The notes under the pieces were generated by a model, which saw only the letters and a program-made list of their open reading frames with translations, was not told where the DNA came from and searched no databases. This document shows, in pieces, positions 1 to 12,335 of a stretch of DNA of 12,335 bases. Location of the stretch: positions 1-12,335 of the forward strand of contig CBFGJN010000056.1 of the NCBI GenBank assembly GCA_965649115.1. The letters are read 5' to 3'. Both the position numbers and the translations under genes were made by a program. How positions within the stretch are numbered: position 1 is the first letter of the stretch; each line of letters begins with the position of its first letter. This DNA comes from a candidate division WOR-3 bacterium (GTDB lineage: Bacteria > Hydrothermota > Hydrothermia > LBFQ01 > DSFT01).

Positions 1-127
1 ATATTTTTCCCACCCACCCTATATTTAAGTCTTCGGCTTATAAATACCCGTTTAAATCTATAATTTCCTCAAAGCTTTTATAAGTTATTGATAATCAAGG
101 ATTTAACAATAATTATTGGATAAAGCA
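1..127 (+). mobile_element. MITE-like repeat, copy A (left end outside the window)
   Basis: Ends in AATAATTATTGGATAAAGCA. Positions 19-127 match 4697-4805 at 108/109 nt. Confidence 0.85.
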
Positions 128-430
128 GAACTAAAAAAATTATGATTATTTCTATGCTGTGTCTAAGAATTCTGAAATATAGATTATTTCTTATTTTGCC
201 CGCCCACCCTGAAAATAAGGCTTCGCCTTATAAATACCCATTTTTCGGCTATGGGGGGCAAAGCCCCCCTTAATGCCCCCATTATTTCAAGTATTTCAAT
301 GAATTTTTTATAAGTAATTGATTATCAATCACTTAACAATAATTATTGGACAAAGCATTATTTCTATGTCTCTCCCCCTGCCCTATCAACAAGCGTACGG
401 CTTTAAAACACTCAAAATTACTGGACGCGC
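128..430 (+). repeat. Older degenerate copy B, interrupted by copy C
   Basis: Joining 128-154 to 367-430 gives CTAAAAAAATTATGATTATTTCTATGTCTCTCCCCCTGCCCTATCAACAAGCGTACGGCTTTAAAA, colinear with 8769-8830. AATTACTGGACGCGC (416-430) resembles a decayed right end. Confidence 0.6.
155..357 (+). mobile_element. MITE-like repeat, copy C, full length (203 bp) with 9-bp target duplication
   Basis: Left end TGCTGTGTCTAAGAATT, right end AATTATTGGACAAAGCA. Flanked by TTATTTCTA at 146-154 and 358-366. Confidence 0.88.
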
Positions 431-443
431 TAATAAATTTCCC

Positions 444-455
444 CTTTAAAATTTT
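444..455 (+). promoter_or_regulatory. Putative -10-containing motif CTTTAAAATTTT before nadC
   Basis: Shared with four other unit-first genes. TAAAAT is 12 nt before the ATG at 465. Confidence 0.4.
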
Positions 456-464
456 AAACTATTT

Positions 465-1298
465 ATGCTTGAAATTGAAGATATTATAAAATATGCTTTA
501 TTAGAAGATAGCTTTTATGGAGATTTAACAACGGAAATTTTAAATATAAATGGAAATGGTGAATTTTTACTAATATCAAAAGAAAATTTTGTCCTTTGCG
601 GAATTGATATATTTGAGAAAGTCTTTAAGTTTTTAAATAATTCAATTTCAATTAAGAAACTTTACAAAGATGGAGATTTTATAAATAAAAATGAGATTAT
701 AGCAATTGTTAAAGGAAGTATTAAAGATATTTTAAAAGGAGAAAGAGTTGCTTTAAATTTTATTCAAAAACTTTCAGGAATATCAACAACAACTTACTAT
801 TTTGTAAAAGAAATAGAAGGAACTGATTGTAAAATTCTTGATACAAGAAAAACAACTCCATTATATAGAAAACTTGAAAAATATGCTGTTAGAATTGGAG
901 GAGGAAACAATCATAGATTTAGTTTATTTGATGGAATTCTAATTAAAGATAATCATATAAAAGCTTTTGGTTCAATAGAAAAATTATTAGATATTGCTGT
1001 TAAAAATAAACCTTTTGGTAAGGAAATTGAAATTGAAGTTTCAAATTTAGAGGAATTAAAAATTGTACTAAATTATCCTATTGATATTGTTTTACTTGAT
1101 AATTTTAAGATTGAGGATATTAGAGAAGCAGTAAAATTGGTAAATGGAAAATGTAAAATTGAAGTTTCAGGTGGTATAAAATTAGAAAATGTTAGAGAAA
1201 TCGCTAAATTGGGTGTTGATTATATATCAATCGGAGCATTAACTCATTCTTCAAGATGGGTAGATATTTCATTAGAATTGAATAGCTTTGTTCAATAA
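465..1298 (+). CDS. nadC: Nicotinate-nucleotide pyrophosphorylase (quinolinate phosphoribosyltransferase)
   Basis: 277 aa. QPRTase motifs ERVALN, DTRKTTP, HRFSLFD, LIKDNH, EIEV, LLDN, EVSGG, ISIGALTHS. Confidence 0.96.
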   Translation: MLEIEDIIKYALLEDSFYGDLTTEILNINGNGEFLLISKENFVLCGIDIFEKVFKFLNNSISIKKLYKDGDFINKNEIIAIVKGSIKDILKGERVALNFIQKLSGISTTTYYFVKEIEGTDCKILDTRKTTPLYRKLEKYAVRIGGGNNHRFSLFDGILIKDNHIKAFGSIEKLLDIAVKNKPFGKEIEIEVSNLEELKIVLNYPIDIVLLDNFKIEDIREAVKLVNGKCKIEVSGGIKLENVREIAKLGVDYISIGALTHSSRWVDISLELNSFVQ

Positions 1299-1400
1299 AT
1301 AATGGGAGGTAGAGCCTCTATTTGACGAAATAAGGTGGCGAAGCCCCCTAATCAATATCCCCTCCCCCTATAAATTATGTTAAGTCCTTGTAGAATTAAA
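1285..1400 (+). repeat. Degenerate short copy D between the convergent nadC and hutH
   Basis: GCTTTGTTCAATAAATAAT resembles the terminal inverted repeat. It is followed by GAAATAAGG, GGCGAAGCCCCC and CCCCCTATAAA, all seen in other copies. Confidence 0.55.
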
Positions 1401-2855
1401 TTAATCTATCAACAATTTATTATTTTTTAAATGATAAATGGCACTTTCAATATCTTTATTTAAATTTCTATCTTCATCAATAGGTTTTATTTGATGGGTT
1501 TTATGATTTCTTAATTCTTCATAAATTTCCCTTAATTCTTTTGGAAGTTTTTTATAATTTTCTGTTAGGTATAAAGCTTGTAGTGAGGCAATTAGTTCAT
1601 AAGCAAAAATATAATAACATTTTTTAACATTTTCAAAAAGAGATAAACTTGAATTTGAACTAAATGAAACGACATCTTCTTGAAATTCGCTTGTAGTTAT
1701 ATTATCAATTGAGTATGGATAAAAATTCATACTGTTTAACAAGCTTGCTTGACTTACTTGAAACATCATAAGACCACTATTTAAACCAGGAGCTTTTGTT
1801 AGAAATTCATATTCCTTCAATAATTGGAATGTTCTTCTCTCCGAAAGATGACACATCTTAATTAAATTCATATTTAAAAAATCTGAAAGAAATGCAATTT
1901 CTTGACCTTGAAATAAGCCAGAAGAAATAATTTCATTATCAACAATTACTGGATTATCTGAAACACTATTTAATTCTTCATTTGTTTTTCGTTCAATAAA
2001 TTTTAAATTATCATATATGCTAGCATATATTTGTGGAAATGTTCTAAATGAATAAGGGTCTTGAATTCTATTACCTTCAAGACTTTCAGTATATTTATTT
2101 AAAATTCCTAAAATTTCATAAAGACCTTCACTTTTATTTAACTTTGATAGCTTTAAATTATAATGTTTTTTATTAGCATTAAATGCATATGCTGAAAAAA
2201 GAAAAATTGTGATAGATTGCCTAAAAATTCTAATAAATTCATTTAAACTTATTGATAAAAGCGCTTTACTAAATTCAAGTCCATTTATTAGTGAAAGTCC
2301 TTCTTTTTCCTTTAAATTTAAAGGTTCTATATTTAAAATTTTATGAGCAATAAGCGAAGGATAAAATGATTTATCTAAATATACATAACCTTCACCAATT
2401 AATGTTAGTGCCATATGGGATAAAGGAATTAAATCCCCACTTGCCCCAACCGAGCCATATTTTGGAATTACAGGATAAACTTGATTATTTAAGAAAAATA
2501 GTAATCTATCTATAACTTCGTACCTAACACCACTATAACCAAGACTTAAATTATATAACTTTAAAAACAAAATTGCCCTTGAAATTTCTCTCTCTAATTC
2601 TTCCCCAACTCCAACCGCATGGGATCTTATTAAATTTAATTGTAATTTTTCAATTTCATCAACAATTTTATAAGCTAATTTTCCAAAACCCGTATTTACA
2701 CCATATATAATTTCATTGTTTTTTATTTTTTCTTCAAGAACTGTTCTTGAATGTAAAATTCTTTGTTTTAATTTTTCAGATATTGAAATTTCTTTATTAG
2801 AATGAGCAACCTCATAAACTAAATTATGGTCAATTTTTTCATCTAATAAAATCAT
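1401..2855 (-). CDS. hutH: Histidine ammonia-lyase (MIO-dependent aromatic amino acid lyase family), divergent
   Basis: 484 aa. IYGVNTGFG, LIRSH (SH pair typical of HAL), MIO tripeptide in GSVGASGDL, KEGLSLING, QDPYSFR, QED. Start overlaps the rpsE stop (ATGA, 2852-2855). Confidence 0.85.
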   Translation of the reverse strand: MILLDEKIDHNLVYEVAHSNKEISISEKLKQRILHSRTVLEEKIKNNEIIYGVNTGFGKLAYKIVDEIEKLQLNLIRSHAVGVGEELEREISRAILFLKLYNLSLGYSGVRYEVIDRLLFFLNNQVYPVIPKYGSVGASGDLIPLSHMALTLIGEGYVYLDKSFYPSLIAHKILNIEPLNLKEKEGLSLINGLEFSKALLSISLNEFIRIFRQSITIFLFSAYAFNANKKHYNLKLSKLNKSEGLYEILGILNKYTESLEGNRIQDPYSFRTFPQIYASIYDNLKFIERKTNEELNSVSDNPVIVDNEIISSGLFQGQEIAFLSDFLNMNLIKMCHLSERRTFQLLKEYEFLTKAPGLNSGLMMFQVSQASLLNSMNFYPYSIDNITTSEFQEDVVSFSSNSSLSLFENVKKCYYIFAYELIASLQALYLTENYKKLPKELREIYEELRNHKTHQIKPIDEDRNLNKDIESAIYHLKNNKLLID

Positions 2856-3316
2856 TTAGAATATCTAAATTTCAAAACATATTCTGGATCTTTAAGAGAT
2901 TCAAGGGCAAGCATAGTTGCTTTTAATAAATTGACTGGATTTGTTGATTTTCCAAGAACTTTTGTTAAAACATTCTTATAGCCTGCCATTTCAAGAATTG
3001 CTCTAACGGGTTGGCTTGCTATAATTCCTGTTCCTGGTGCGGCTGGTTTCATAAGTAATTTTATAGCACCAAATTTAATATAAACAGGGTGGGGAAGTGT
3101 CCCATTTTTTATTACTACATTTCTCAAATTCTTTCTTGCCCTCCTTACCGCTTTTGCATAAGCTTCTGGTGTTTCAGCAGCTCTACCGTGTCCTATTCCT
3201 ACTTTTCCTTGACCATCACCTACAACAACCCAAACATGCATTCTAAATGTTCTTCCACCAGCCCTCATTTTTGCTGTTCTTTTTATAACTACAACAGTTT
3301 CTCTTAAACTTTCCAT
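2852..3316 (-). CDS. rpsE: 30S ribosomal protein S5 (uS5)
   Basis: 154 aa. KRTAKMRAGGRTF, VVVGDGQGKVGIGHG, TLPHPV, LMKPAAPGTGIIA, VRAILEMAG, STNPVNLLKAT. Strong SD upstream. Confidence 0.93.
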   Translation of the reverse strand: MESLRETVVVIKRTAKMRAGGRTFRMHVWVVVGDGQGKVGIGHGRAAETPEAYAKAVRRARKNLRNVVIKNGTLPHPVYIKFGAIKLLMKPAAPGTGIIASQPVRAILEMAGYKNVLTKVLGKSTNPVNLLKATMLALESLKDPEYVLKFRYSK

Positions 3317-3319
3317 TTT

Positions 3320-4633
3320 TTATCCTCCTATTTTTGAAAATTTTAAAGTATCAAGAATCCAATAAATTATTGTTCTAACACCAAAACCTGTTGCTCCAAT
3401 TTCATTATTATAAGCTACACCAGCAATATCAATATGAGCCCACTTATTAGGTTCTTCTACAAATTCCCTTAAAAATAATGCTGCAAAAATTGCTCCACCC
3501 CACCTGTCTCCTGTATTCTTTATATCAGCAACTTTACTTTTTAGTTTTTGGGCAATTTTTTCATCTAAGGGCATTAACCAATAATTTTCATCTGCTAAAC
3601 TTCCATAGTATTCAATTTTTTTATATAAATCAAAATTTGGTGTAAAAACACCTGCTCTGTATTCTCCAAGAGCAACAACAATAGCACCCGTTAATGTTGC
3701 AAAATCTATAATATAATCTAAGTGTTTATAATGCTTTGAGATATATGATAAAACATCAGCAAGTGTTAATCTTCCTTCTGCATCAGTGTTAAGAATTTCT
3801 ATTGTTTTACCATTATATGCTTTTACAACATCACCTGGTTTCATAGCTTTACCAGAAGGCATATTCTCGCATGTAGCAAAGAATCCATGAATTTCAATAT
3901 CTTTTAGCTTTAATTTTCCAATTATATCAAATACTCCAAGAACAGTTCCTGCACCTGCCATGTCAATTTTCATATCTAACATCCCTTCATAAGTTTTTAT
4001 ATTCAATCCTCCACTATCAAATGTTAATGCTTTACCAACAATAGCAATTTTTAATTTTGGATTACCACTTTTATAACTAAGATGAACGAAATATGGTTCT
4101 TTATCAGAACCACTTGCAACCGCTAGAAAGGCATTAAAACCCATCTTTTCAAGCTCTTTTCTGTCAAAAACCTCAATTTCAAAATTGTAATTTTTGGCAA
4201 TTTTTTCAGCTTCTAACTTTAATGTTTCGGGATATATTTTATTTGGAGGTTCATTAACAAGGTCCCTAGTATAATTAACACCTTCTGAAATGATTTTTGC
4301 TAAATTATTATCATCAATCTTTGAAATTATGAAATAATTAACATCAAAAGTGTTAATTTTTGACTTATACTTATCAAATGAATAGTGTTGATAATAAAGT
4401 TCTTCAATAGCAAATGTTAAATTCTCATCATCTTTGAGACTTAAGAGAACATTCTTAAACTTAAAATCTTTAACAATTTTTGAAACTTTTCTTATATAAT
4501 CACGAACATTCGTCCATTTTATAAGAAATGTTTTTGGTTCAACGAACAAGAAATCATTTTCAATATCCGAAGGCTCAAAAATAGCATTATATTCAATATC
4601 TTCCTTCTCTTTTAAAATTTTTACATTAATCAT
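3320..4633 (-). CDS. pepA: Leucyl aminopeptidase (M17 family)
   Basis: Motifs VGKALTFDSGG, MKIDMAGA, NTDAEGRL, ATLTGA, WAHIDIAG. ATG at 4633 is preferred over the track's TTG at 4654, which abuts a repeat target duplication. Confidence 0.93.
   Translation of the reverse strand: MINVKILKEKEDIEYNAIFEPSDIENDFLFVEPKTFLIKWTNVRDYIRKVSKIVKDFKFKNVLLSLKDDENLTFAIEELYYQHYSFDKYKSKINTFDVNYFIISKIDDNNLAKIISEGVNYTRDLVNEPPNKIYPETLKLEAEKIAKNYNFEIEVFDRKELEKMGFNAFLAVASGSDKEPYFVHLSYKSGNPKLKIAIVGKALTFDSGGLNIKTYEGMLDMKIDMAGAGTVLGVFDIIGKLKLKDIEIHGFFATCENMPSGKAMKPGDVVKAYNGKTIEILNTDAEGRLTLADVLSYISKHYKHLDYIIDFATLTGAIVVALGEYRAGVFTPNFDLYKKIEYYGSLADENYWLMPLDEKIAQKLKSKVADIKNTGDRWGGAIFAALFLREFVEEPNKWAHIDIAGVAYNNEIGATGFGVRTIIYWILDTLKFSKIGG
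3323..3329 (-). promoter_or_regulatory. Shine-Dalgarno site of rpsE (AGGAGGA)
   Basis: AGGAGGA lies in the last pepA codons, 6 nt before the rpsE ATG at 3316. Confidence 0.8.
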
Positions 4634-4637
4634 ACCC

Positions 4638-4649
4638 AAAAGTTTAAAG
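4638..4649 (-). promoter_or_regulatory. Putative -10 motif CTTTAAACTTTT before pepA
   Basis: TAAACT is 7 nt before the ATG at 4633; no SD. Confidence 0.5.
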
Positions 4650-4661
4650 TTCAAAGTGAAG

Positions 4662-4805
4662 TGCTTTGTCTAGTAATTCTAAAAATATGATTATTTCTAT
4701 ATTTAAGTCTTCGGCTTATAAATACCCGTTTAAATCTATAATTTCCTCAAAGCTTTTATAAGTTATTGATAATCAAGGATTTAACAATAATTATTGGACA
4801 AAGCA
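4662..4805 (+). mobile_element. MITE-like repeat, copy E (144 bp) with 8-bp target duplication
   Basis: TGCTTTGTCTAGTAATT ... AATTATTGGACAAAGCA (15/17 inverted match). AAGTGAAG at 4654-4661 and 4806-4813. Confidence 0.9.
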
Positions 4806-4813
4806 AAGTGAAG

Positions 4814-4955
4814 TGGTTTGTCTAGTAATTCTGAAATATAGATTATTTCTTATTTTCTCCCATCCACCCTACGAAATAAGCCTTCGTCTTTATAATGCCC
4901 ATTTTTAAACCTCCAAAAAATAAATTGACTATAAATCCCCCTATAAAAGCGATAG
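4814..4955 (+). repeat. Copy F: left end and core, right end missing
   Basis: TGGTTTGTCTAGTAATTCTGAAATATAGATTATTTCTTATTTT, then CCCATCCACCCT, AAGCCTTCGTCTT and CCCCCTATAAAA. Right boundary approximate. Confidence 0.78.
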
Positions 4956-4993
4956 TTCTAATAGACTTTATTTTTATACCTTGGGGGTTCATT

Positions 4994-5701
4994 TTATTTG
5001 AAAAAGCAATTTCCATTTATTGTTAAATAAGCAAAATAATTAAAAATTTCATCATTTGAAACCTTCAAAAATTTTTCAATTTCTTTTAATGAACTATCTC
5101 TCATTTCATTTAAGGCATAACAAGAAATGTACCTTATTGAAAATAAGCTATCTTTAAGGTGTGGAATAATGTAAGGAATTGAAGGATAGTACTTTAATTT
5201 TCCAAGTGATTGTATTGCTCTAAATCGTACAATTTCATCTTCATTATCAACATATTCAAGTAAGTACTTCCCATAATTACTATCATTTGAGTTTCCTATT
5301 GCTCTTATAATAGAAGCTAAAATATGAGGTCTATCATCATATCTACTTAATAACTGCCACAAGACATCTGTAATTTCTTTAACTTTCCATTCATTTATCA
5401 AGTACAAAGCATCTTTAACTTTTAAGGTATCATTTGAGAGTAAAACAAATTTCAAATAAGGAATTGTTCTTTGATAATTGTCCATAAACATATCTCTAAT
5501 AGCTCTAAGAGAAAATCTATCTCTTTTACCAATTTTATTATTAAATAGCCAAGAAACAACTTGCGGGCATTTTTTTAAACTATCTCTTGCAATATCAACT
5601 TTTTTTACATTTTCACCTGCTCTCCATAAACTTGCTGTTTTCCACAATCTCTCCATCAAACTATCAGAACAAGATATAAATAAAATTATCATGTTGTCCA
5701 T
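4994..5701 (-). CDS. HEAT-repeat (PBS lyase HEAT-like) protein, function unknown
   Basis: 235 aa with tandem HEAT-like units (LASIIRAIGNS; LLEYVDNEDEIVRFRAIQSLGKL; IIPHLKDSLFSIRYISCYALNEM). Overlaps the end of the PFK gene; alternative ATG at 5692. Confidence 0.72.
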   Translation of the reverse strand: MDNMIILFISCSDSLMERLWKTASLWRAGENVKKVDIARDSLKKCPQVVSWLFNNKIGKRDRFSLRAIRDMFMDNYQRTIPYLKFVLLSNDTLKVKDALYLINEWKVKEITDVLWQLLSRYDDRPHILASIIRAIGNSNDSNYGKYLLEYVDNEDEIVRFRAIQSLGKLKYYPSIPYIIPHLKDSLFSIRYISCYALNEMRDSSLKEIEKFLKVSNDEIFNYFAYLTINGNCFFK

Positions 5702-6891
5702 TTAAAGTTTTTTATAAATTCTTCTTTTTCCATTTTTGCAACTTCACAAAGCTTTAAAAGAAATTCTTCATTTTCAAAATCTTCCTTTCTAAGTCTAATC
5801 ATATAATGATAAGCAGCTTCATATACCTCACCTTTCAAATCAACATATCTTATTTTAATTTTGTCATTTTCTACAAATTCATTTATATCAACTGGCTCTA
5901 TCTTTTCTCCTCTTAATGTAATCACAGCACAATGGATGCTATTATTAGATAACAAAAATTTTACTGCCCCATATCCAAGGGTTATTGTATATGCGATATC
6001 AAAAGCAATTGGTTTAGCATTTCTCAAAACATATCCAATATTTTGCGGAATAATTCTTATATTTATATTTCTTTTTTTAAGCCTATTTTCAACTTCATTT
6101 GCAAGTAATTCAGCAAGAGGAAATTCAGAAATTGAATGATAATGCTCCAAACTGAAATTTTCTAATTTCAAGGATAATCCTTCTGCCAAAATAGCAACAC
6201 CATAAGGTTTATTATATGCTAAACGCTTAATAATTGAACCTTCCAAAATATCTACTAAAAGTTTTAAAGGAATTTTTTCATAATTTTGAAATTCTTCTGG
6301 AATAATTGTTAAAGTTGCTCCTGAACTTTTACCAATACCGATTGCTAAATGTCCTGAACTTCTACCCATAACTTGAACAAAAAACCACCTTTTCAAAGTT
6401 TTTGCATCTTCCATTAGATTAAGAACAAGTTCCATACCAAGATTTCTTGCAGTTTCAAAGCCAAATGTCCTACTACTTGGAGGAAGAGGAAAATCATTAT
6501 CAATTGTTTTTGGAATGTGGGCAAACTTTATTTTTTTATCTTTATCAAGCTTTGATATTTTGTATATCATACTTGCAGTCCCATCACCTCCTATTGAAAC
6601 AAGATAACTGATACCTGAATTTACTAAACTAATGTATGTATTAAAAACTTCTTCATCACTTGAATTACCTCGTGATGTTCCTATTATTGAACCACCATAA
6701 TAATGAATTCTGCTTACATCCTCTATTTCCAAATTTTTATAAACAATTTTATTTTTACTTAGATGATGAAATCCATCTAAAAAACCTATAACTTCTAAAT
6801 TTCTATTTTTTGCTTCTATTACAACTGCTCTAATTACTGAATTTATCCCAGGAGCTGGTCCTCCTGCACAAACGATACCAAGTTTCTTCAT
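5689..6891 (-). CDS. 6-phosphofructokinase, PfkA family; PPi-PFK 'short'-clade-like scaffold with ATP-type GGDG motif
   Basis: 400 aa. GGPAPGIN, GGSIIGTSR, IGGDGT, PKTIDND, TFGFETA, VMGR, IIPEE, IGYVLR, YMIRL. Confidence 0.9.
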   Translation of the reverse strand: MKKLGIVCAGGPAPGINSVIRAVVIEAKNRNLEVIGFLDGFHHLSKNKIVYKNLEIEDVSRIHYYGGSIIGTSRGNSSDEEVFNTYISLVNSGISYLVSIGGDGTASMIYKISKLDKDKKIKFAHIPKTIDNDFPLPPSSRTFGFETARNLGMELVLNLMEDAKTLKRWFFVQVMGRSSGHLAIGIGKSSGATLTIIPEEFQNYEKIPLKLLVDILEGSIIKRLAYNKPYGVAILAEGLSLKLENFSLEHYHSISEFPLAELLANEVENRLKKRNINIRIIPQNIGYVLRNAKPIAFDIAYTITLGYGAVKFLLSNNSIHCAVITLRGEKIEPVDINEFVENDKIKIRYVDLKGEVYEAAYHYMIRLRKEDFENEEFLLKLCEVAKMEKEEFIKNFKWTT

Positions 6892-7967
6892 TTAAGTCTG
6901 TTCTCAAAAATCTCATCAGCTACAATAGCAGGGCTTTTATTAGTTCTTCTTACAATTTCAAAAATTTCATTTAAATTCTTTATAACATTTTCCTTTGTTT
7001 TTTCAATTGCAATTTTTCTTGCAGTTTCTTGACTAGTTTGCTTTCCTATTCTTAATTCGTACTCATAATACACAAGTGTTAGACCTCCGAGATTTATAGC
7101 ATAATCAGGTGCATATACTATTCCTCTATCTTGTAATTTTTGAGCAACATCGTAATTTTCAATTTGATTATTAGCAGCACCTACAATAGCTTTATGTTTA
7201 ATTTTTTCAACATTTTTACTATTTATTACTTTACCAAGTGCATTTGGAGAGAAAATATCAAATTCCTTATCAAAAACCTCATCAGGTGGAATATATTTCA
7301 AATTTTTATATTTGTTTAGAGCATTTTCAATAGCCTTTGGACTAACATCAGAAATATAAATTTGATAACCTTCATTATATAAATGCTCTAAAAGATAACT
7401 TCCAACTTTTCCTATGCCTTGAAGTAAAATTGTAGTTTTTGAAGGCTCTTTATTTAAAATTTTTTCAGTAATGTAATTTATGGCTGTAAAAACACCAATA
7501 GCTGTTACTGGTGAAGGATCTCCAAGTCCTCCCATAGATTCAGGTAATCCTACAACATGTTTTGTCCTTTCACTTACAATTTTCATATCTTCAACACGAG
7601 TTCCAACATCTTCTGCTGTTATATAATTTCCCTTCAATTGCTCAACAAAATCTCCAAAACTTTCAAAGAGACTTCTTCTTACATCAGGTAGTAATTCATA
7701 GAATTCTGATATGATTACAGCTTTACCTCCACCAAGTGGTAAATTTCCAGCAACTGCCTTGTAAGTCATACCTCTTGAAAGTCTTAAAACATCTTCAAGA
7801 GCTAATGCGGACTTTGCCCTATGATTCTCATAATGATAAAATCTACATCCTCCAAGTGCTGGACCTCTTTTTGTACTATGAATTGCTATAATAGCTACAA
7901 ACCCTCCATATATCTCTTTAACATAAACTTTTTCCCATCCAAAAATATCAAGTTCTCTTATTTCCAT
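6888..7967 (-). CDS. Leu/Val/Phe-type amino acid dehydrogenase (ELFV family), probably leucine dehydrogenase
   Basis: GPALGGCR, LSRGMTYK, GGGKAVI, YITAEDVGT, GDPSPVTAIGV, Rossmann QGIGKVG, GAANNQ, YAPDY. ATG at 7967 is preferred because of the AGGAGG at 7977-7982. Confidence 0.9.
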   Translation of the reverse strand: MEIRELDIFGWEKVYVKEIYGGFVAIIAIHSTKRGPALGGCRFYHYENHRAKSALALEDVLRLSRGMTYKAVAGNLPLGGGKAVIISEFYELLPDVRRSLFESFGDFVEQLKGNYITAEDVGTRVEDMKIVSERTKHVVGLPESMGGLGDPSPVTAIGVFTAINYITEKILNKEPSKTTILLQGIGKVGSYLLEHLYNEGYQIYISDVSPKAIENALNKYKNLKYIPPDEVFDKEFDIFSPNALGKVINSKNVEKIKHKAIVGAANNQIENYDVAQKLQDRGIVYAPDYAINLGGLTLVYYEYELRIGKQTSQETARKIAIEKTKENVIKNLNEIFEIVRRTNKSPAIVADEIFENRLK

Positions 7968-8643
7968 GTATCTCAACCTCCTTTCTTAAAATTTCAAAAA
8001 GTTCAAACTCTCTAAATTTTAATCCAAAAACTTGTTCAAATCCTTTAATAATTGAATTTTCAACTAAATTTCTATTATTTATTCCAACTTCCTTATAAAT
8101 ACTTGTAATGCCCTTATCTTTTATACCACAAGGAATAATTAAATTAAAATGTTCATATATTGGATCAATATAAAGAGCAAATCCATGGAATGTTATCCAA
8201 TCCTTAACTGCTATTCCAATAGCACAAATTTTATTATTACCAACCCAAACACCCGTATAATTCTCAATTTGATTTGCATTTATATTTAATTCTTTTAAAG
8301 CAATAATAATTGCTTTTTCCAAATTTCTTACAAAATTTCTAATTTCATTAAGACCATTTATTCTAAAAAATAAATAACCAATTAGTTGTCCAGGTCCATG
8401 GTAGGTTATATCACCTCCTCTTTCAACATAATAAACACTAATTCCCATTTCTTTTAAATAGTCCTCGGGAACAATTAAATTTTCTAATTTACCTCTTCTG
8501 CCAAATGTTATTACAGGTTCATGTTCTAATAGCCATAAGGTATTTGGAATTTCATCATTTTTTCTTAAATTATGAATAATTCTTTGTATTTCAAGTGCTT
8601 TTTTATACTCAACTATTCCTGACCTAATTAGGATAGCATCCAA
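7948..8643 (-). CDS. lipB: Lipoyl(octanoyl) transferase
   Basis: LLEHEPVITFGR, ERGGDITYHGPGQL, GVWV, KICAIG, HGFAL, IIPCGI. Start uncertain: TTG at 8643 is favoured by typical LipB length and the upstream motif; the track start is 8697. Confidence 0.92.
   Translation of the reverse strand: MDAILIRSGIVEYKKALEIQRIIHNLRKNDEIPNTLWLLEHEPVITFGRRGKLENLIVPEDYLKEMGISVYYVERGGDITYHGPGQLIGYLFFRINGLNEIRNFVRNLEKAIIIALKELNINANQIENYTGVWVGNNKICAIGIAVKDWITFHGFALYIDPIYEHFNLIIPCGIKDKGITSIYKEVGINNRNLVENSIIKGFEQVFGLKFREFELFEILRKEVEIHGNKRT
7976..7982 (-). promoter_or_regulatory. Shine-Dalgarno site of the dehydrogenase gene (AGGAGGT)
   Basis: AGGAGGT lies 8 nt before the ATG at 7967, inside the 3' end of lipB. 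Confidence 0.8.
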
Positions 8644-8648
8644 TTTCC

Positions 8649-8660
8649 AAAATTTTAAAG
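8649..8660 (-). promoter_or_regulatory. Putative -10 motif CTTTAAAATTTT before lipB
   Basis: TAAAAT is 8 nt before the TTG at 8643. Confidence 0.45.
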
Positions 8661-8724
8661 GATAGCCAAGGAAAAAATAAATTTTTATTTTCCACACCTA
8701 CCTCAGGCTAAAATCAAGCTTAAA

Positions 8725-8751
8725 TTTACTTGAAAATTTATAAGTTGGTGA
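8725..8751 (+). repeat. Remnant G of the element's right part
   Basis: TTACTTGAAAATTTATAAGTTGGTGA resembles TTACTTTGAAAATTCATAAGTTATTGA in copy H (8892-8918). Confidence 0.5.
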
Positions 8752-8953
8752 TGCTTTGTCTAATAATTCTAAAACTGTAATTATTTCTTATTTTCCCACC
8801 CACCCTATACTCAAGGCTACGCCTTTAAAATCCCCATTTTTCGGTAGGGGGGCTTCGCCCCCTTTTCAATAACCCCCTATAAAATAAACAATTACTTTGA
8901 AAATTCATAAGTTATTGATAAACAATTATTTAAATTATTTGTTAGACAAAGCA
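8752..8953 (+). mobile_element. MITE-like repeat, copy H, full length (202 bp), flanks do not match
   Basis: TGCTTTGTCTAA ... TTAGACAAAGCA is a perfect 12-bp inverted repeat. Full internal motif set present. Confidence 0.88.
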
Positions 8954-8962
8954 ATTTTTTCC

Positions 8963-9090
8963 TGTTTTGTCCAAATAATTCTAAAAATATATAATATAAT
9001 TCTTCTTTATTCCCACCCACCCTGTATTTAAGCCTTCGGCTTATAACTTTGCCCCCTATTAAGACCCCCCTATAAAATAAACGATTTCTT
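8963..9090 (+). repeat. Copy I: left end and core
   Basis: TGTTTTGTCCAAATAATTCTAAAAATAT, CCCACCCACCCT, TAAGCCTTCGGCTTA, CCCCCTATAAAATAAAC. Right boundary approximate. Confidence 0.78.
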
Positions 9091-9094
9091 TTAT

Positions 9095-9215
9095 TTAAAT
9101 TACTTATATATTTCTCAACTCACCCTATTTTTAAGCTTACAGCTTTTAAAAACCCCAATTTTTGCTATTGGGAACTTCGCCTCCCTATAATCCCTCATAA
9201 GAACTACGATTTAGC
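9095..9215 (+). repeat. Copy J: degenerate core only
   Basis: CTCAACTCACCCTA, AAGCTTACAGCTT, AAAACCCCAATTTTTGCTAT, GGGAACTTCGCCTCCC. Boundaries approximate. Confidence 0.65.
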
Positions 9216-9235
9216 CGAAAAAAGGACTTATTTTT

Positions 9236-9335
9236 TGCTCTGTCTAATAATTCTAAAATTATTGTATATTCAAAGCTTCGCTTTATAAATAGCTACGCTC
9301 TCTTTCAAGAATTCCTCTAAAATAAATAATTTCCT
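9236..9335 (+). repeat. Copy K: left end and internally deleted core
   Basis: TGCTCTGTCTAATAATTCTAAAA, AAAGCTTCGCTTT, AGCTACGCT, CCTCTAAAATAAA. Right boundary approximate. Confidence 0.7.
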
Positions 9336-9360
9336 TAAAATTTTTGTAAATTATTTATTT

Positions 9361-10338
9361 TTATATTGATAAGTTTGGCTCAGCAGTTATTTCAAAGCTA
9401 CTTTTATATCCTTTCTTTAATCTATAAGCACCTGCAACTCCTATCATTCCTGCATTATCAGTACAAAATTCAGGAAGAGGGAAATAAACTTCCTTTATGT
9501 ATTCTTTAAATTTTTCTCTTAATCTACTGTTTAAAGATACACCTGCTACAACAGCAACCTTTTCAATTTTAAAATCCTCAATAGCTTTTAGTGTTGTATT
9601 TAGTAGTATATCAATAAGTGCCTCCTGATAGCTTGCACAAATATCAGATAAGTGATAGTTTATAAAGTCTTTATCTTTATCACTTAAATACAATTTTAAT
9701 GCAGTTTTAATACCACTAAATGAAAAGTTATACTTACCATATTTAATTTTTGGAATACTAAACTTTATGAAGTTTTTATCTCCTCCTTTTGCTAATTTAT
9801 CAATATATGGACCACCAGGATAAGGTAAGTTTAACATTTTTGCTCCTTTATCAAATGCTTCACCAACAGCATCATCTAATGTTTGGCCAATAAGTTTATA
9901 TTTCAAGAAATCTTCAACTATTAGTAGTTCGGTATGACCTCCTGATACAATTAAACATAAAAATGGAGGTTTTAATTGTCTATTATTTATAAAAATTGAA
10001 AATATATGACCTTCAAGATGATTTATACCAATAAATGGCTTTTTTAAAGCTTGTGCCAATGTTTTACCAAATGTTATACCAATCAAAAGTGAGCTTGCCA
10101 AACCAGGTCCATAAGTAAAAGCAATTCCTTCAATCTCATTTAAACTAACTTTATTTAAAGCTTTTTTTGTAAGTTTATCAATATATAAAATATGCTCCCT
10201 TGCAGCAATTTCTGGAACAACGCCACCAAATTCACTATGAACTAATTGCTGTCTTGTTAATTGAATAATAACATCAAAATCATCAACAATTGCAACAGAT
10301 GTCTCATCACAAGATGTTTCAAATGCTAAAACTTTCAT
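9361..10338 (-). CDS. tsaD: tRNA N6-adenosine threonylcarbamoyltransferase
   Basis: 325 aa. ETSCDET, GGVVPEIAAREH, GPGL, NHLEGH, VSGGHT, TLDDAVGEAFDK, FSFSGIKT, CTDNAGMI. Confidence 0.96.
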   Translation of the reverse strand: MKVLAFETSCDETSVAIVDDFDVIIQLTRQQLVHSEFGGVVPEIAAREHILYIDKLTKKALNKVSLNEIEGIAFTYGPGLASSLLIGITFGKTLAQALKKPFIGINHLEGHIFSIFINNRQLKPPFLCLIVSGGHTELLIVEDFLKYKLIGQTLDDAVGEAFDKGAKMLNLPYPGGPYIDKLAKGGDKNFIKFSIPKIKYGKYNFSFSGIKTALKLYLSDKDKDFINYHLSDICASYQEALIDILLNTTLKAIEDFKIEKVAVVAGVSLNSRLREKFKEYIKEVYFPLPEFCTDNAGMIGVAGAYRLKKGYKSSFEITAEPNLSI

Positions 10339-10958
10339 AATGTTTTTATACTAATAATTAAACCATCACCAATAGGAATAAATGAGCTTATGAAATCCTT
10401 ATCAGAAAAAATTAGTTTATTAAATTCTCTAATAGCTATTGTTTCTTCTGAATTGTCGTTTTTATCTAAAACTTTATTATGCCATAATGTATTATCTGAA
10501 ACAAAAACACCTCCAACCTTTAGCTTCTTCTTTACCAAACTTATTATTTTGGGATATTGTTTTTTATCAGCATCGTTAAAAATTAAATCAAACTCCATTT
10601 TTATTTCATTTAATAAATTCAATCCATCACCAATATATGTTTCAATTTTATTTTCAAGACCGACAACTCTGAAAAATTCTCTTGCTAATTCAAGATTCTG
10701 AGATTTATAATCTGTAAGATATATTTTTTCAACATATTGATTATATATTGCTATCCACATTGCAGAATAACCAAAACCTGAACCTATTTCAAAAATATAT
10801 TTTGATTTATTTGCTATTGATATTAATGATAAAAATCTTGCAGACAATCTATTTAATATAGGAAAATTCATTTTTTTACCATAGTTTTCCATTTCAAGAA
10901 TAATTGGATGAACTAATTGATAGCTTTCAAGCTCAATAAGATAGTCTAAAAGATTCAT
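10335..10958 (-). CDS. Class I SAM-dependent, cation-dependent O-methyltransferase (CCoAOMT/TrmR-like family)
   Basis: 207 aa. EIGSGFGYS (motif I), FDLIFNDADK, GGVFVSDNTLW, PIGDGL. ATGA overlap with tsaD. Confidence 0.87.
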   Translation of the reverse strand: MNLLDYLIELESYQLVHPIILEMENYGKKMNFPILNRLSARFLSLISIANKSKYIFEIGSGFGYSAMWIAIYNQYVEKIYLTDYKSQNLELAREFFRVVGLENKIETYIGDGLNLLNEIKMEFDLIFNDADKKQYPKIISLVKKKLKVGGVFVSDNTLWHNKVLDKNDNSEETIAIREFNKLIFSDKDFISSFIPIGDGLIISIKTL

Positions 10959-10962
10959 CTTG

Positions 10963-10974
10963 AAAATTTTAAAG
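10963..10974 (-). promoter_or_regulatory. Putative -10 motif CTTTAAAATTTT before the O-methyltransferase gene
   Basis: TAAAAT is 7 nt before the ATG at 10958; no SD. Confidence 0.5.
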
Positions 10975-10993
10975 TTGAAAGGGATTTATTATT

Positions 10994-11280
10994 TGGTGTG
11001 TATAGTAATTCTGAAAATATTTATTTTTCTATATTTTGCCCACCCACACTGAAAATAGGTCTTTGGCTTATAAATACCCGTTTTTCCGCTTCAAAGTACT
11101 TCAACTTTTGCTTTTGGGGCATAGCCCTTCTTAAAGCCCTCTGTAAAATATATAATTTTAGTATCTTTTTTGACAAGTTAAAGCATAAAGCTCTAAAAAA
11201 ACAACGATAAATACTTGAAAAAAATTTGATTTTTATAAGTTATTGATAATCAATAATTTAATTAAAATTTGATGGCACAT
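10994..11280 (+). repeat. Copy L: long variant with decayed ends, in the divergent spacer
   Basis: TGGTGTGTATAGTAATTCTGAAAATAT, GCCCACCCACACT, ATAGGTCTTTGGCTTATAAATACCCG, GGGCATAGCCC, TAAGTTATTGATAATCAATAATTTA. Confidence 0.8.
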
Positions 11281-11318
11281 TTTAAACATTTTTAAATTGA
11301 AAGTTTTTGTTTTTTATA

Positions 11319-11330
11319 CTTTAAAATTTT
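11319..11330 (+). promoter_or_regulatory. Putative -10 motif CTTTAAAATTTT before the lipoprotein gene
   Basis: TAAAAT is 8 nt before the ATG at 11336; no SD. Confidence 0.5.
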
Positions 11331-11335
11331 GGCAA

Positions 11336-12335
11336 ATGAAAAATTATTTTTTAATTTCACTTATGATATTAATGGGCTGTGTCAAAAGCGAATTTTCTGA
11401 AATAAATATGTGTAAAAAATATGCCTTAAATGCTCCAAAACTTGAGAATAATAGTGAGAATTTACAAAAATTTTATCTTTTTATAGATGGAACACCATCT
11501 ATGAAAGGATTTGTAGCGGTGAATTATAATAATTATAAATTTTTTTTGGAAAATTTGGAAAACATAGTTTCTATAATTTATAAACGATCGGATGTTGAAT
11601 ACTATCGTTTTGGAAAGCAGGTTTATAAAATAGACAGAAATGAATTTAGAAAGAGTTCATTAGACTCTGGTTTTTATAGTGATCCAATTACCTACATAGA
11701 TGTTGTAATTGATAGCGCCATTAAGTGGTCATTTGATAATAAACACTATTTAATTTTAACAGATTTATTTCAGCAAGAAGGAGACATAGATAAATTTATA
11801 TCAAAAATAAAGGAATTGGCAAATTTAGATATATTTATGGGTATCATTAGTATTGATGCTGATTTCAAGGGTAAGGTTTATGATGTTTCACCAAGTGCTT
11901 ATGCATTTGATTATGAGGGAAAAAGACCATTTTATTTACTTATATTTTCAAAAAATTTAAGTTTAATTGATAAAATTATAAATGAAGTTTCAAATCAATT
12001 GAAAGAAAATTTAAGTGCTATTATAGTTGGAAATTACTTATCAATGTCAAATTATACGCCAAAAATTTCAAAAAGATATGAAGGTTTTGTTAGAATTTCA
12101 GATAGTGTTTTAAAAATGAATAAGAGTGAATTAAAAATTCCTCTAAAAATGGAATTTGATATTTCAAAATACTCATTATCACCTAACTTTGCCGAAGTAA
12201 AAGTTATTGATTGCGAAAAAGGCAAAACATTATCAGATAGAAGTTATTCAATAGAAGATGACATATTAAATATAGATTTAAAAATTACAAAGAAAGACAA
12301 GCCTCATATAATAAATGTAAAAGTCCATTCTAATC
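11336..12335 (+). CDS. Predicted lipoprotein with vWA/MIDAS-like domain (3' end beyond the window)
   Basis: Read manually as open from ATG 11336 to the window end. MKNYFLISLMILMGC (lipobox, Cys15), then FYLFIDGTPSMKGF (DxSxS-like), DPIT, LILTD, KRPFYLLIF. Confidence 0.78.
   Translation, partial: MKNYFLISLMILMGCVKSEFSEINMCKKYALNAPKLENNSENLQKFYLFIDGTPSMKGFVAVNYNNYKFFLENLENIVSIIYKRSDVEYYRFGKQVYKIDRNEFRKSSLDSGFYSDPITYIDVVIDSAIKWSFDNKHYLILTDLFQQEGDIDKFISKIKELANLDIFMGIISIDADFKGKVYDVSPSAYAFDYEGKRPFYLLIFSKNLSLIDKIINEVSNQLKENLSAIIVGNYLSMSNYTPKISKRYEGFVRISDSVLKMNKSELKIPLKMEFDISKYSLSPNFAEVKVIDCEKGKTLSDRSYSIEDDILNIDLKITKKDKPHIINVKVHSN

Follow-up and report, generated by a model that had tools for sequence, protein, structure and literature searches.

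In the genome of a candidate division WOR-3 bacterium (G000; 1.85 Mb, 27.6% GC, 94.5% complete, 99 contigs), we have shown that a MITE (miniature inverted-repeat transposable element) of about 205 bp, together with an insertion sequence (IS) carrying the same ends, inserts in one orientation, with the terminus of the IS right-end type positioned 22 nt upstream of the -10 box of host promoters. The MITE was recognized in the 12,335-nt contig CBFGJN010000056.1, which is the whole of contig C56 of G000 and is referred to here, at its full length, as the window. The original prediction, made from the letters of the window alone, described the repeat and overlooked both its promoter-anchored register and orientation and the fact that the palindrome within it is two inverted consensus sites for integration host factor (IHF). 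The end that it named left is of the IS right-end type and its right end is of the IS left-end type; left and right are used in that sense for the MITE below. Comparisons were made with the congeners G001, G003 and G004, the sister species G002, and G255, a member of another family of the same phylum.

Insertion register at host promoters

Searching G000 with an nhmmer profile hidden Markov model (HMM; 205 positions, trained on 120 genomic copies) yielded 723 matches on 93 of the 99 contigs, covering 96.5 kb or 5.2% of the genome, with 0 matches in the reversed genome that served as control. The hexamer TA[AT]AAT starts 21-22 nt outward of 185 of the 342 outermost left ends, with 139 at 22 and only 5 at 23 (shuffle control 2.3 per position); the 137 outer right ends displayed no peak, with at most 5 at any offset. 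Left ends face gene starts in 248 cases and stops in 40. This box is host DNA: two orthologous genes have it upstream in G001, G003 and G004 as well, and in MITE-free genes, which show no -35 signal, it lies 6-8 nt ahead of the ATG; the duplicated 9-mer of an inserted copy lies at about -34 to -26, the usual position of a -35 box. Viewed from the promoters, an intact left end is found at 21-23 nt from no fewer than 142 of the 495 exact boxes in intergenic DNA. The IS obeys the same register, as evidenced by 11 of its 16 right ends (10 at 22), with 3 more abutting a MITE, and 0 of its 10 left ends. In a sample from G002, 20 of 42 ends were in register, as were 5 of 7 right ends from metagenome relatives at 21-22 nt, judged by eye. 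We also noticed that, across G000, many genes seem to be leaderless: their start codon follows a -10-only box at 6-8 nt, and a -35 signal is missing.

Parent insertion sequence and spread of the MITE

End matches lacking the MITE interior proved to be two sets of identical IS stubs at contig ends (10 left, 16 right), and for 7 of the left stubs the duplication recurs beside a right stub of a different contig. One stub opens a reading frame that is 92% identical to the N-terminus of P0003, a 300-residue protein, and the other, read directly, encodes the final residues of P0003. This protein comprises PF13737 and PF01609, scores 245 bits against NCBIfam IS5_2 (NF033579; cutoff 140), has D115, D194 and E256 conserved in the alignment, and matches ISVa1, ISAba10 and IS903B on plasmids at 26-30% identity. 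With the length of the open reading frame (ORF) taken from P0003, the implied parent IS measures 67+903+82 = 1,052 bp; for the IS903 group, PMC3281130 gives 1,050-1,054 bp, 9-bp repeats and inverted ends of 15-27 bp. The ends of the MITE and of IS903B have 14 of 17 bases in common. By its predicted product and ends, the parent, present in about 16 copies, is an IS5-family, IS903-group IS. Its transposase gene has the apparently leaderless layout of many host genes, with a -10-only box near the start. The nearest named relatives of the transposase, P0021 and P0026, are IS5 elements of Hydrogenivirga (Aquificota), 43-45% identical.

The original prediction had pointed to the IS256 or IS1595 family, and this hint gave way to the IS903 group: Transposase_mut and DDE_Tnp_IS1595 had 0 matches in G000, nor did PF00872 (Mutator-like transposase) match there. 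Pfam searches of G000 for DDE_Tnp_1, DDE_Tnp_1_5, IS1595 and Transposase_mut returned nothing because the interior of the IS is unassembled, and a PF13737 search of the genus was empty with the interior likewise unassembled. Two other candidates were rejected, namely the DDE_Tnp_1 matches of a sister genus as parent, since they are unrelated to the MITE ends, and the multicopy ORFs of G000 as the source of movement, none of which are transposases.

The repeat itself is a MITE, as established by its length, inverted ends, target duplication, empty sites and cognate autonomous element. Its modal length is 203-206 bp, and an exact 9-bp duplication flanks 105 of 278 two-ended copies (0.7 with shuffled pairing) and an 8-bp duplication 11 of 278 (0.25 with shuffled pairing), with none at 10-15 bp. 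The suggestion that the duplications would be 11 and 10 bp if the terminal T/A belonged to the target did not hold, given that the T/A belongs to the element and the 11-bp reading fits only 48 of the 105. Only 3 of the 723 matches are centred within ORFs of at least 150 aa, though such ORFs make up 84% of the genome, and the longest ATG frame per copy has a median of 23 aa and a maximum of 55, in keeping with the earlier remark that no credible ORF lies inside. Of 272 genomes from the phylum, 2 contain the right-end motif, namely G000 and G002; G003 has one copy, and three of four congeners have none or a single one. At 11 syntenic junctions the element is present in G000 and none was detected in G002 (e.g. 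at a tRNA promoter on C2 and a three-unit array on C51), with a single diverged copy of the 9-mer seen at the empty site in one case only, by eye. A heavily amplified, non-autonomous element moved in trans, as originally proposed, is supported by the duplications, the empty sites of the sister species and a parent IS with the same ends, and the searches of Rfam and of known plasmid and phage elements gave no match to it.

The sequencing runs best matching the window are hot-spring metagenomes, and a locus labelled Candidatus Hydrothermia also has a full MITE copy with a 9-bp duplication. The matches listed from an end-motif scan of genome contigs were mostly chance, an IS-end pattern scan of metagenomes found 0, and among the joints listed between the window and assembled contigs of four runs there was no clean empty-site joint.

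A 1,426-bp composite (G000:C11:31359-32784), bounded by MITE ends and flanked by an exact 9-bp duplication, holds a 242-aa ORF and a short ORF; the former has no Pfam or NCBIfam match and only weak PD-(D/E)XK leads, all below 0.9, and could possibly be cargo moved by the MITE ends. A methyltransferase gene occurs three times (C21:9006-9698, C23:648-1340 and C46:10367-11059; 83-96% identical, one split), each time beside MITE arrays, and further duplicated genes were seen between C11 and C48 and between C30 and C61.

Arrays, mosaicism and gene order

In 142 cases a right end is followed by another end after 8-9 bp, and of these junctions 107 are head-to-tail (left-type end next), 6 tail-to-tail (right-type) and 29 untyped; left-left junctions number 2. 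Among 198 promoter-anchored arrays, 49 have at least two units, and in 24 of these the first spacer equals the promoter-side 9-mer. Tandem duplication was rejected as the source of arrays, since neighbouring units are no more similar than random copies (median identity 0.81, n=15, vs. 0.82). To avoid the bias of a truncated last unit, decay was compared in the 28 arrays whose first two units are both two-ended: the proximal unit is full length in 19 and the second in 7 (discordant pairs 14 vs. 2), and the proximal unit scores higher per base in 21 of 28 (p=0.004). Both arrays of the window, starting at 4662 and 8752, likewise decay away from the promoter side. This polarity is consistent with insertion taking place repeatedly at the duplication copy on the promoter side.

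Full copies average 79% identity, yet many retain perfect duplications. Across 118 copies (2 of 120 were dropped as badly aligned), the identity of the first third correlates with that of the last at r 0.03 vs. 0.27-0.37 for random thirds of columns, and linkage r2 falls from 0.12 below 15 bp to 0.02 beyond 60 bp. As judged by this loss of linkage, the MITE family is a recombining mosaic, hence the modules of the original prediction.

Gene order was compared over 378,700 bp of G002, about a quarter, in 20 stretches with 301 orthologues (median identity 91%). Junctions holding a MITE were broken in 39 of 57 cases vs. 15 of 81 for MITE-free boundaries of transcription units (odds ratio 9.5, p=5e-9), and operon-internal junctions in 3 of 146. 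The association held when the MITE was scored in G002 alone (13/20 vs. 21/98 broken; odds ratio 6.8) and when only promoter-box junctions were considered (28/39 vs. 7/32; odds ratio 9.1). From these figures we infer that the MITE is a cause of synteny breaks.

Mechanism, competing explanations and known systems

A second promoter-sited element bears on how such sites may be found. G255 holds fragments 36-49% identical to P0003 and 58 end matches, from that IS and from a 159-bp MITE whose ends are IS903-like and whose interior is unrelated. In the loci read (30 of the 58 end matches plus three IS loci, giving 43 distinct ends), TTGACW starts 5-8 nt outward of 22 of the 43 ends, with 16 at 8 (shuffle 0.09, maximum 2), and 21 of these 22 have a -10-like box at canonical spacing. 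Among 17 two-ended copies, 13 have TTGACW at one or both ends and 6 have a 9-bp duplication, and either end of this MITE may face the promoter. No TTGACW peak was seen at the ends in G000, where 342 ends gave 5 scattered matches. When the -35 test was applied to 9 more genomes, 2 of 20 end matches fit, 13 of the 20 lying within another repeat and being uninformative; for family f26 the figure was 2 of 5. Another modular intergenic repeat, seen in genomes of family f27 (G135-G138, L297-L309), has an IS903-like end motif inside and a constant flank.

The best explanation, and one that we regard as probable, is mobilisation of the MITE in trans, with promoter-anchored stacking of copies. A DDE transposase of the IS903 group (IS5 family), encoded by an IS with the same ends, would act on the MITE; because the promoter would outlive each insertion, the same site could be struck again, giving head-to-tail growth with the newest copy beside the promoter. 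Recombination among copies would create the mosaics, and recombination between loci would swap whole transcription units along with their own -10 box, which would make such rearrangements cheap. Several findings pull the other way: 1) the interior of the IS is unassembled in G000, which holds only both ends of the transposase gene, and P0003 comes from another sample, being 92-96% identical over the N-terminal stubs; 2) 157 of the 342 outer left ends fall outside the 21-22-nt register, 57 of them lying at 13-16; 3) of the 4 left ends in the window that are free or nested, only the one at 10994 is canonical, with 4662 at 15 nt, 8752 having no canonical box and 155 being nested; 4) 25 of the 49 array spacers differ from the promoter-side 9-mer; 5) the registers of G000 and G255 differ by 8-9 bp, unlike the prediction of a rigid tether; 6) only 5 displaced halves of duplications were found at loci inside contigs, two of these being AT-rich, many matches of that search being contig-end splits; and 7) congeners with none or one copy also differ in upstream neighbours, so that the element is not required for shuffling.

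Within this explanation, the least certain part is how the promoter is found. We lean towards a transpososome that recognizes promoters through bound RNA polymerase or sigma, or through a promoter-specific DNA shape, in preference to one motif, since two related systems targeting two promoter motifs favour recognition of the promoter as such over a single sequence. More tentatively, and with rather less conviction, we surmise that a clade of IS903-group transposases may home via the host transcription machinery to whichever promoter type the host has (-10-only in G000, a TTGACA -35 in G255), and that the polar arrays of the MITE may record insertion order and serve as interchangeable sockets for expression-preserving shuffling of units. 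Alternatively, the transposase might itself recognize the DNA motif of the promoter, which would serve as an extended target consensus, independent of RNA polymerase or sigma. The host box, lying at a fixed distance, is indeed a strong AT motif and close to palindromic, and 9 of 64 exact boxes in a rough coding class have an end at 21-23 nt, some of them maybe beside mis-called starts; the relative in G255, however, targets TTGACW at another offset, the feature shared by the two targets being that of a promoter, and direct reading seems doubtful to us.

The link with gene order might instead reflect metagenome misjoins at repeats, or MITE-rich boundaries that are simply fragile. G000 and G002 are both fragmented assemblies, 83 of the 198 contig ends of G000 fall in the repeat, the comparison is confined to the 378,700 bp of G002, and MITE-free congeners shuffle too. 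We nevertheless find this unlikely: at 79% average identity the copies are mostly resolvable, breaks inside operons are few (3/146), the effect persists per genome and at promoter-box junctions, and mosaicism is an independent pointer to exchange between copies.

The interior of the MITE raises a further alternative, that the repeat is a domesticated host regulatory module (hairpins together with an IHF bend, serving as a terminator or an insulator) under host selection. Hairpin 1 has a perfect stem in 104 of 108 copies, in several stem variants (shuffled arms 52, maximum 68), and both hairpins have 3-nt loops reading GNA or ANA on one strand, the hairpin 2 loop occurring in both orientations. 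Loops of the GNA/ANA type can form very stable DNA mini-hairpins. Of 119 full copies, 94 have an exact forward match to the IHF consensus and 88 an exact reverse one; the specified positions of this consensus are 96% conserved vs. 70% for N positions, and 524 matches to it fall within the MITE (5% of the DNA) vs. 381 elsewhere. The left end of the parent IS has no palindrome, and G000 holds three HU/IHF-family genes. These data suggest selection on the hairpins and on the double IHF-like site, with synapsis of the ends or insulation of the adjoining promoter as its probable purpose. As an account of the repeat, domestication is nonetheless quite improbable: three of four congeners lack the element or have one copy while keeping the same promoters, distal copies decay, conservation fits selection for mobility equally well, and the two HU/IHF proteins scanned, although best matched as IHF, score below the curated IHF cutoffs. 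The earlier suggestion of possible co-option by the host gains no support, for the first of these reasons, as the promoter box is the same in those congeners. Hardly tenable is random insertion with the pattern left by selection (purging from genes and core promoters, or favouring of hybrid promoters), which accounts for ORF avoidance (3/723) and gains from a minor 12-14-nt class that would place the TAGACA/TGGACA-like hexamer of the end 17-19 nt from the -10 box, but cannot yield a one-base peak (139 at 22, 5 at 23) in one orientation, is at odds with young identical IS copies sharing the register (10 of 16 at 22), and at offset 22 would leave the end hexamer 27 nt away from the box of host promoters that show no -35 signal.

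Returning to the IS903-group reading, the element resembles IS903B, ISAba10 and ISVa1, as well as ISPam1 and others in PMC3281130, in a length of ~1,050 bp, one ORF, a 9-bp duplication, short inverted ends and PF13737+PF01609; it differs in a transposase only 26-30% identical and in its fixed register and orientation to promoters. IS903 and ISAba13 are reported to follow H-NS-bound DNA, with ISAba13 unbiased in orientation within genes (PMC11335895). Promoter-targeted insertion, the feature encountered here, is known from TnGBS integrative and conjugative elements, ISLre2 and ISKra4-group IS, which insert 15-17 bp upstream of the -35 region (PMC3942029). The present element is not a member of these, theirs being a prokaryotic Mutator-like (p-MULT) transposase of an unrelated family; the registers seen here are 22 nt to the -10 box in G000 (duplication at about -34 to -26) and 8 nt to the -35 box in G255 (where the duplication abuts it). 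The term MITE has 0 occurrences in the main text of PMC3942029. Correia/NEMIS elements of Neisseria and other MITEs with IHF sites (PMC2229807 and PMC10969869) are likewise 150-205 bp, high-copy and intergenic, with an IHF-type site and stem-loops. Unlike Correia elements, the MITE has a 9-bp duplication, an IS903-type parent, two inverted IHF-consensus sites and promoter-anchored polar arrays. The target duplication of Correia elements is TA. The 5% share of the genome compares with "up to 2%" in PMC3281130, and a comparable number, 711 copies, is known for ERIC in Photorhabdus (PMC10969869).

A literature search, with most subscription journals outside its scope, retrieved nothing on this element or on promoter homing by the IS5 family; in the literature searched, bacterial promoter-targeted transposition is described for Mutator-like enzymes only (PMC3942029). 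A 300-aa IS5-family enzyme that homes in two hosts whose promoter types differ would give a small and tractable model of promoter finding and might be of use as a gene-sparing insertion tool. It would also provide a concrete way for gene order to be scrambled where transcription units meet, and promoters of an uncultured lineage can be mapped from the element ends.

Repeat copies and neighbouring genes in the window

The copies of the window, with related host features, are as follows.

2-127, plus strand: MITE copy truncated by the contig start and internally deleted, ending in the right end (IS left-end type); nhmmer model 39-205, 79 bits
146-154, plus strand: first half of a 9-bp target duplication, identical to 358-366
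155-357, plus strand: full-length MITE, 203 bp, with no -10 box at the usual 22-nt register in its outward flank; model 1-205, 188 bits
311-335, no strand: palindrome of two inverted, overlapping IHF-consensus sites (consensus WATCAANNNNTTR per PMC3281130)
358-419, plus strand: second duplication half (358-366) and the remainder of an older, decayed copy; model 30-92, 20 bits
444-454, plus strand: host promoter box upstream of nadC, i.e. host DNA of the type of site targeted; box profile from MITE-free genes
1284-1400, minus strand: decayed reverse-orientation remnant overlapping the 3' end of nadC; weak HMM match, end motif at 1284
4641-4646, minus strand: -10-like hexamer belonging to an aminopeptidase gene; its distance to the element end is 15 nt (minor register)
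4662-4805, plus strand: 144-bp internally deleted MITE, promoter-proximal in a two-unit array; HMM, 8-bp duplications 4654-4661/4806-4813
4814-4968, plus strand: distal, older unit with its far end gone; model 1-154, 58 bits
8752-8953, plus strand: full-length MITE, first of a four-unit array, its flanks differing (no duplication); 140 bits
8963-9090, 9105-9220 and 9236-9357, plus strand: three progressively more decayed units; 48, 44 and 21 bits
10964-10974, minus strand: host promoter box of a leaderless O-methyltransferase gene; hexamer 10966-10971, ATG at 10958
10994-11260, plus strand: decayed copy whose left end is exactly 22 nt upstream of the 10966-10971 hexamer (canonical); model 1-164, 92 bits (HMM match 10994-11179), palindrome at 11236-11260

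The window holds 11 HMM matches over 1,444 bp, or 11.7% of its length, compared with the ~14% first estimated. Of the roughly 12 copies or fragments then counted, these matches and the palindrome at 11236-11260 stood, and the piece at 1285-1400 is only the weak reverse remnant (best E 0.0026 in a 137-bp search). Repeat pieces occupy all five spacers of at least 100 bp, so the claim that the family fills every intergenic spacer is right for the window and fails genome-wide, where 295 of 460 gaps of at least 100 bp hold it. The two exact flanking duplications reported were confirmed, one of 9 bp (146-154/358-366) and one of 8 bp (4654-4661/4806-4813). Since the 9-bp target sits within an older MITE copy, of which 128-154 and 358-419 are the two halves, the copy at 155-357 is a nested insertion. 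Positions 19-127 and 4697-4805 are 99% identical, the copy at 4662-4805 being composed of the HMM matches 4662-4730 and 4726-4805. The palindrome recurs at 81-105, 4759-4783 and 11236-11260, with a half site at 8908-8920. The promoter box of the O-methyltransferase gene also precedes its orthologues in G001, G003 and G004. An Rfam search of the window gave a single chance match (E 0.48) outside the repeats.

Among the neighbouring genes, nadC (ORF 465-1298) takes its last codons and stop from the decayed MITE end at 1284-1298. The gene rpsE (ribosomal protein S5; 2852-3316) is not part of the spc operon and sits immediately upstream of a gene of the histidine ammonia-lyase type; that the MITE moved it out of its operon was ruled out by the rpsE-hutH linkage in 4 of 4 congeners. 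At 11297-12335, an ORF of at least 346 aa, cut by the contig end and with no Pfam match, opens with a short hydrophobic N-terminus followed by a Cys.

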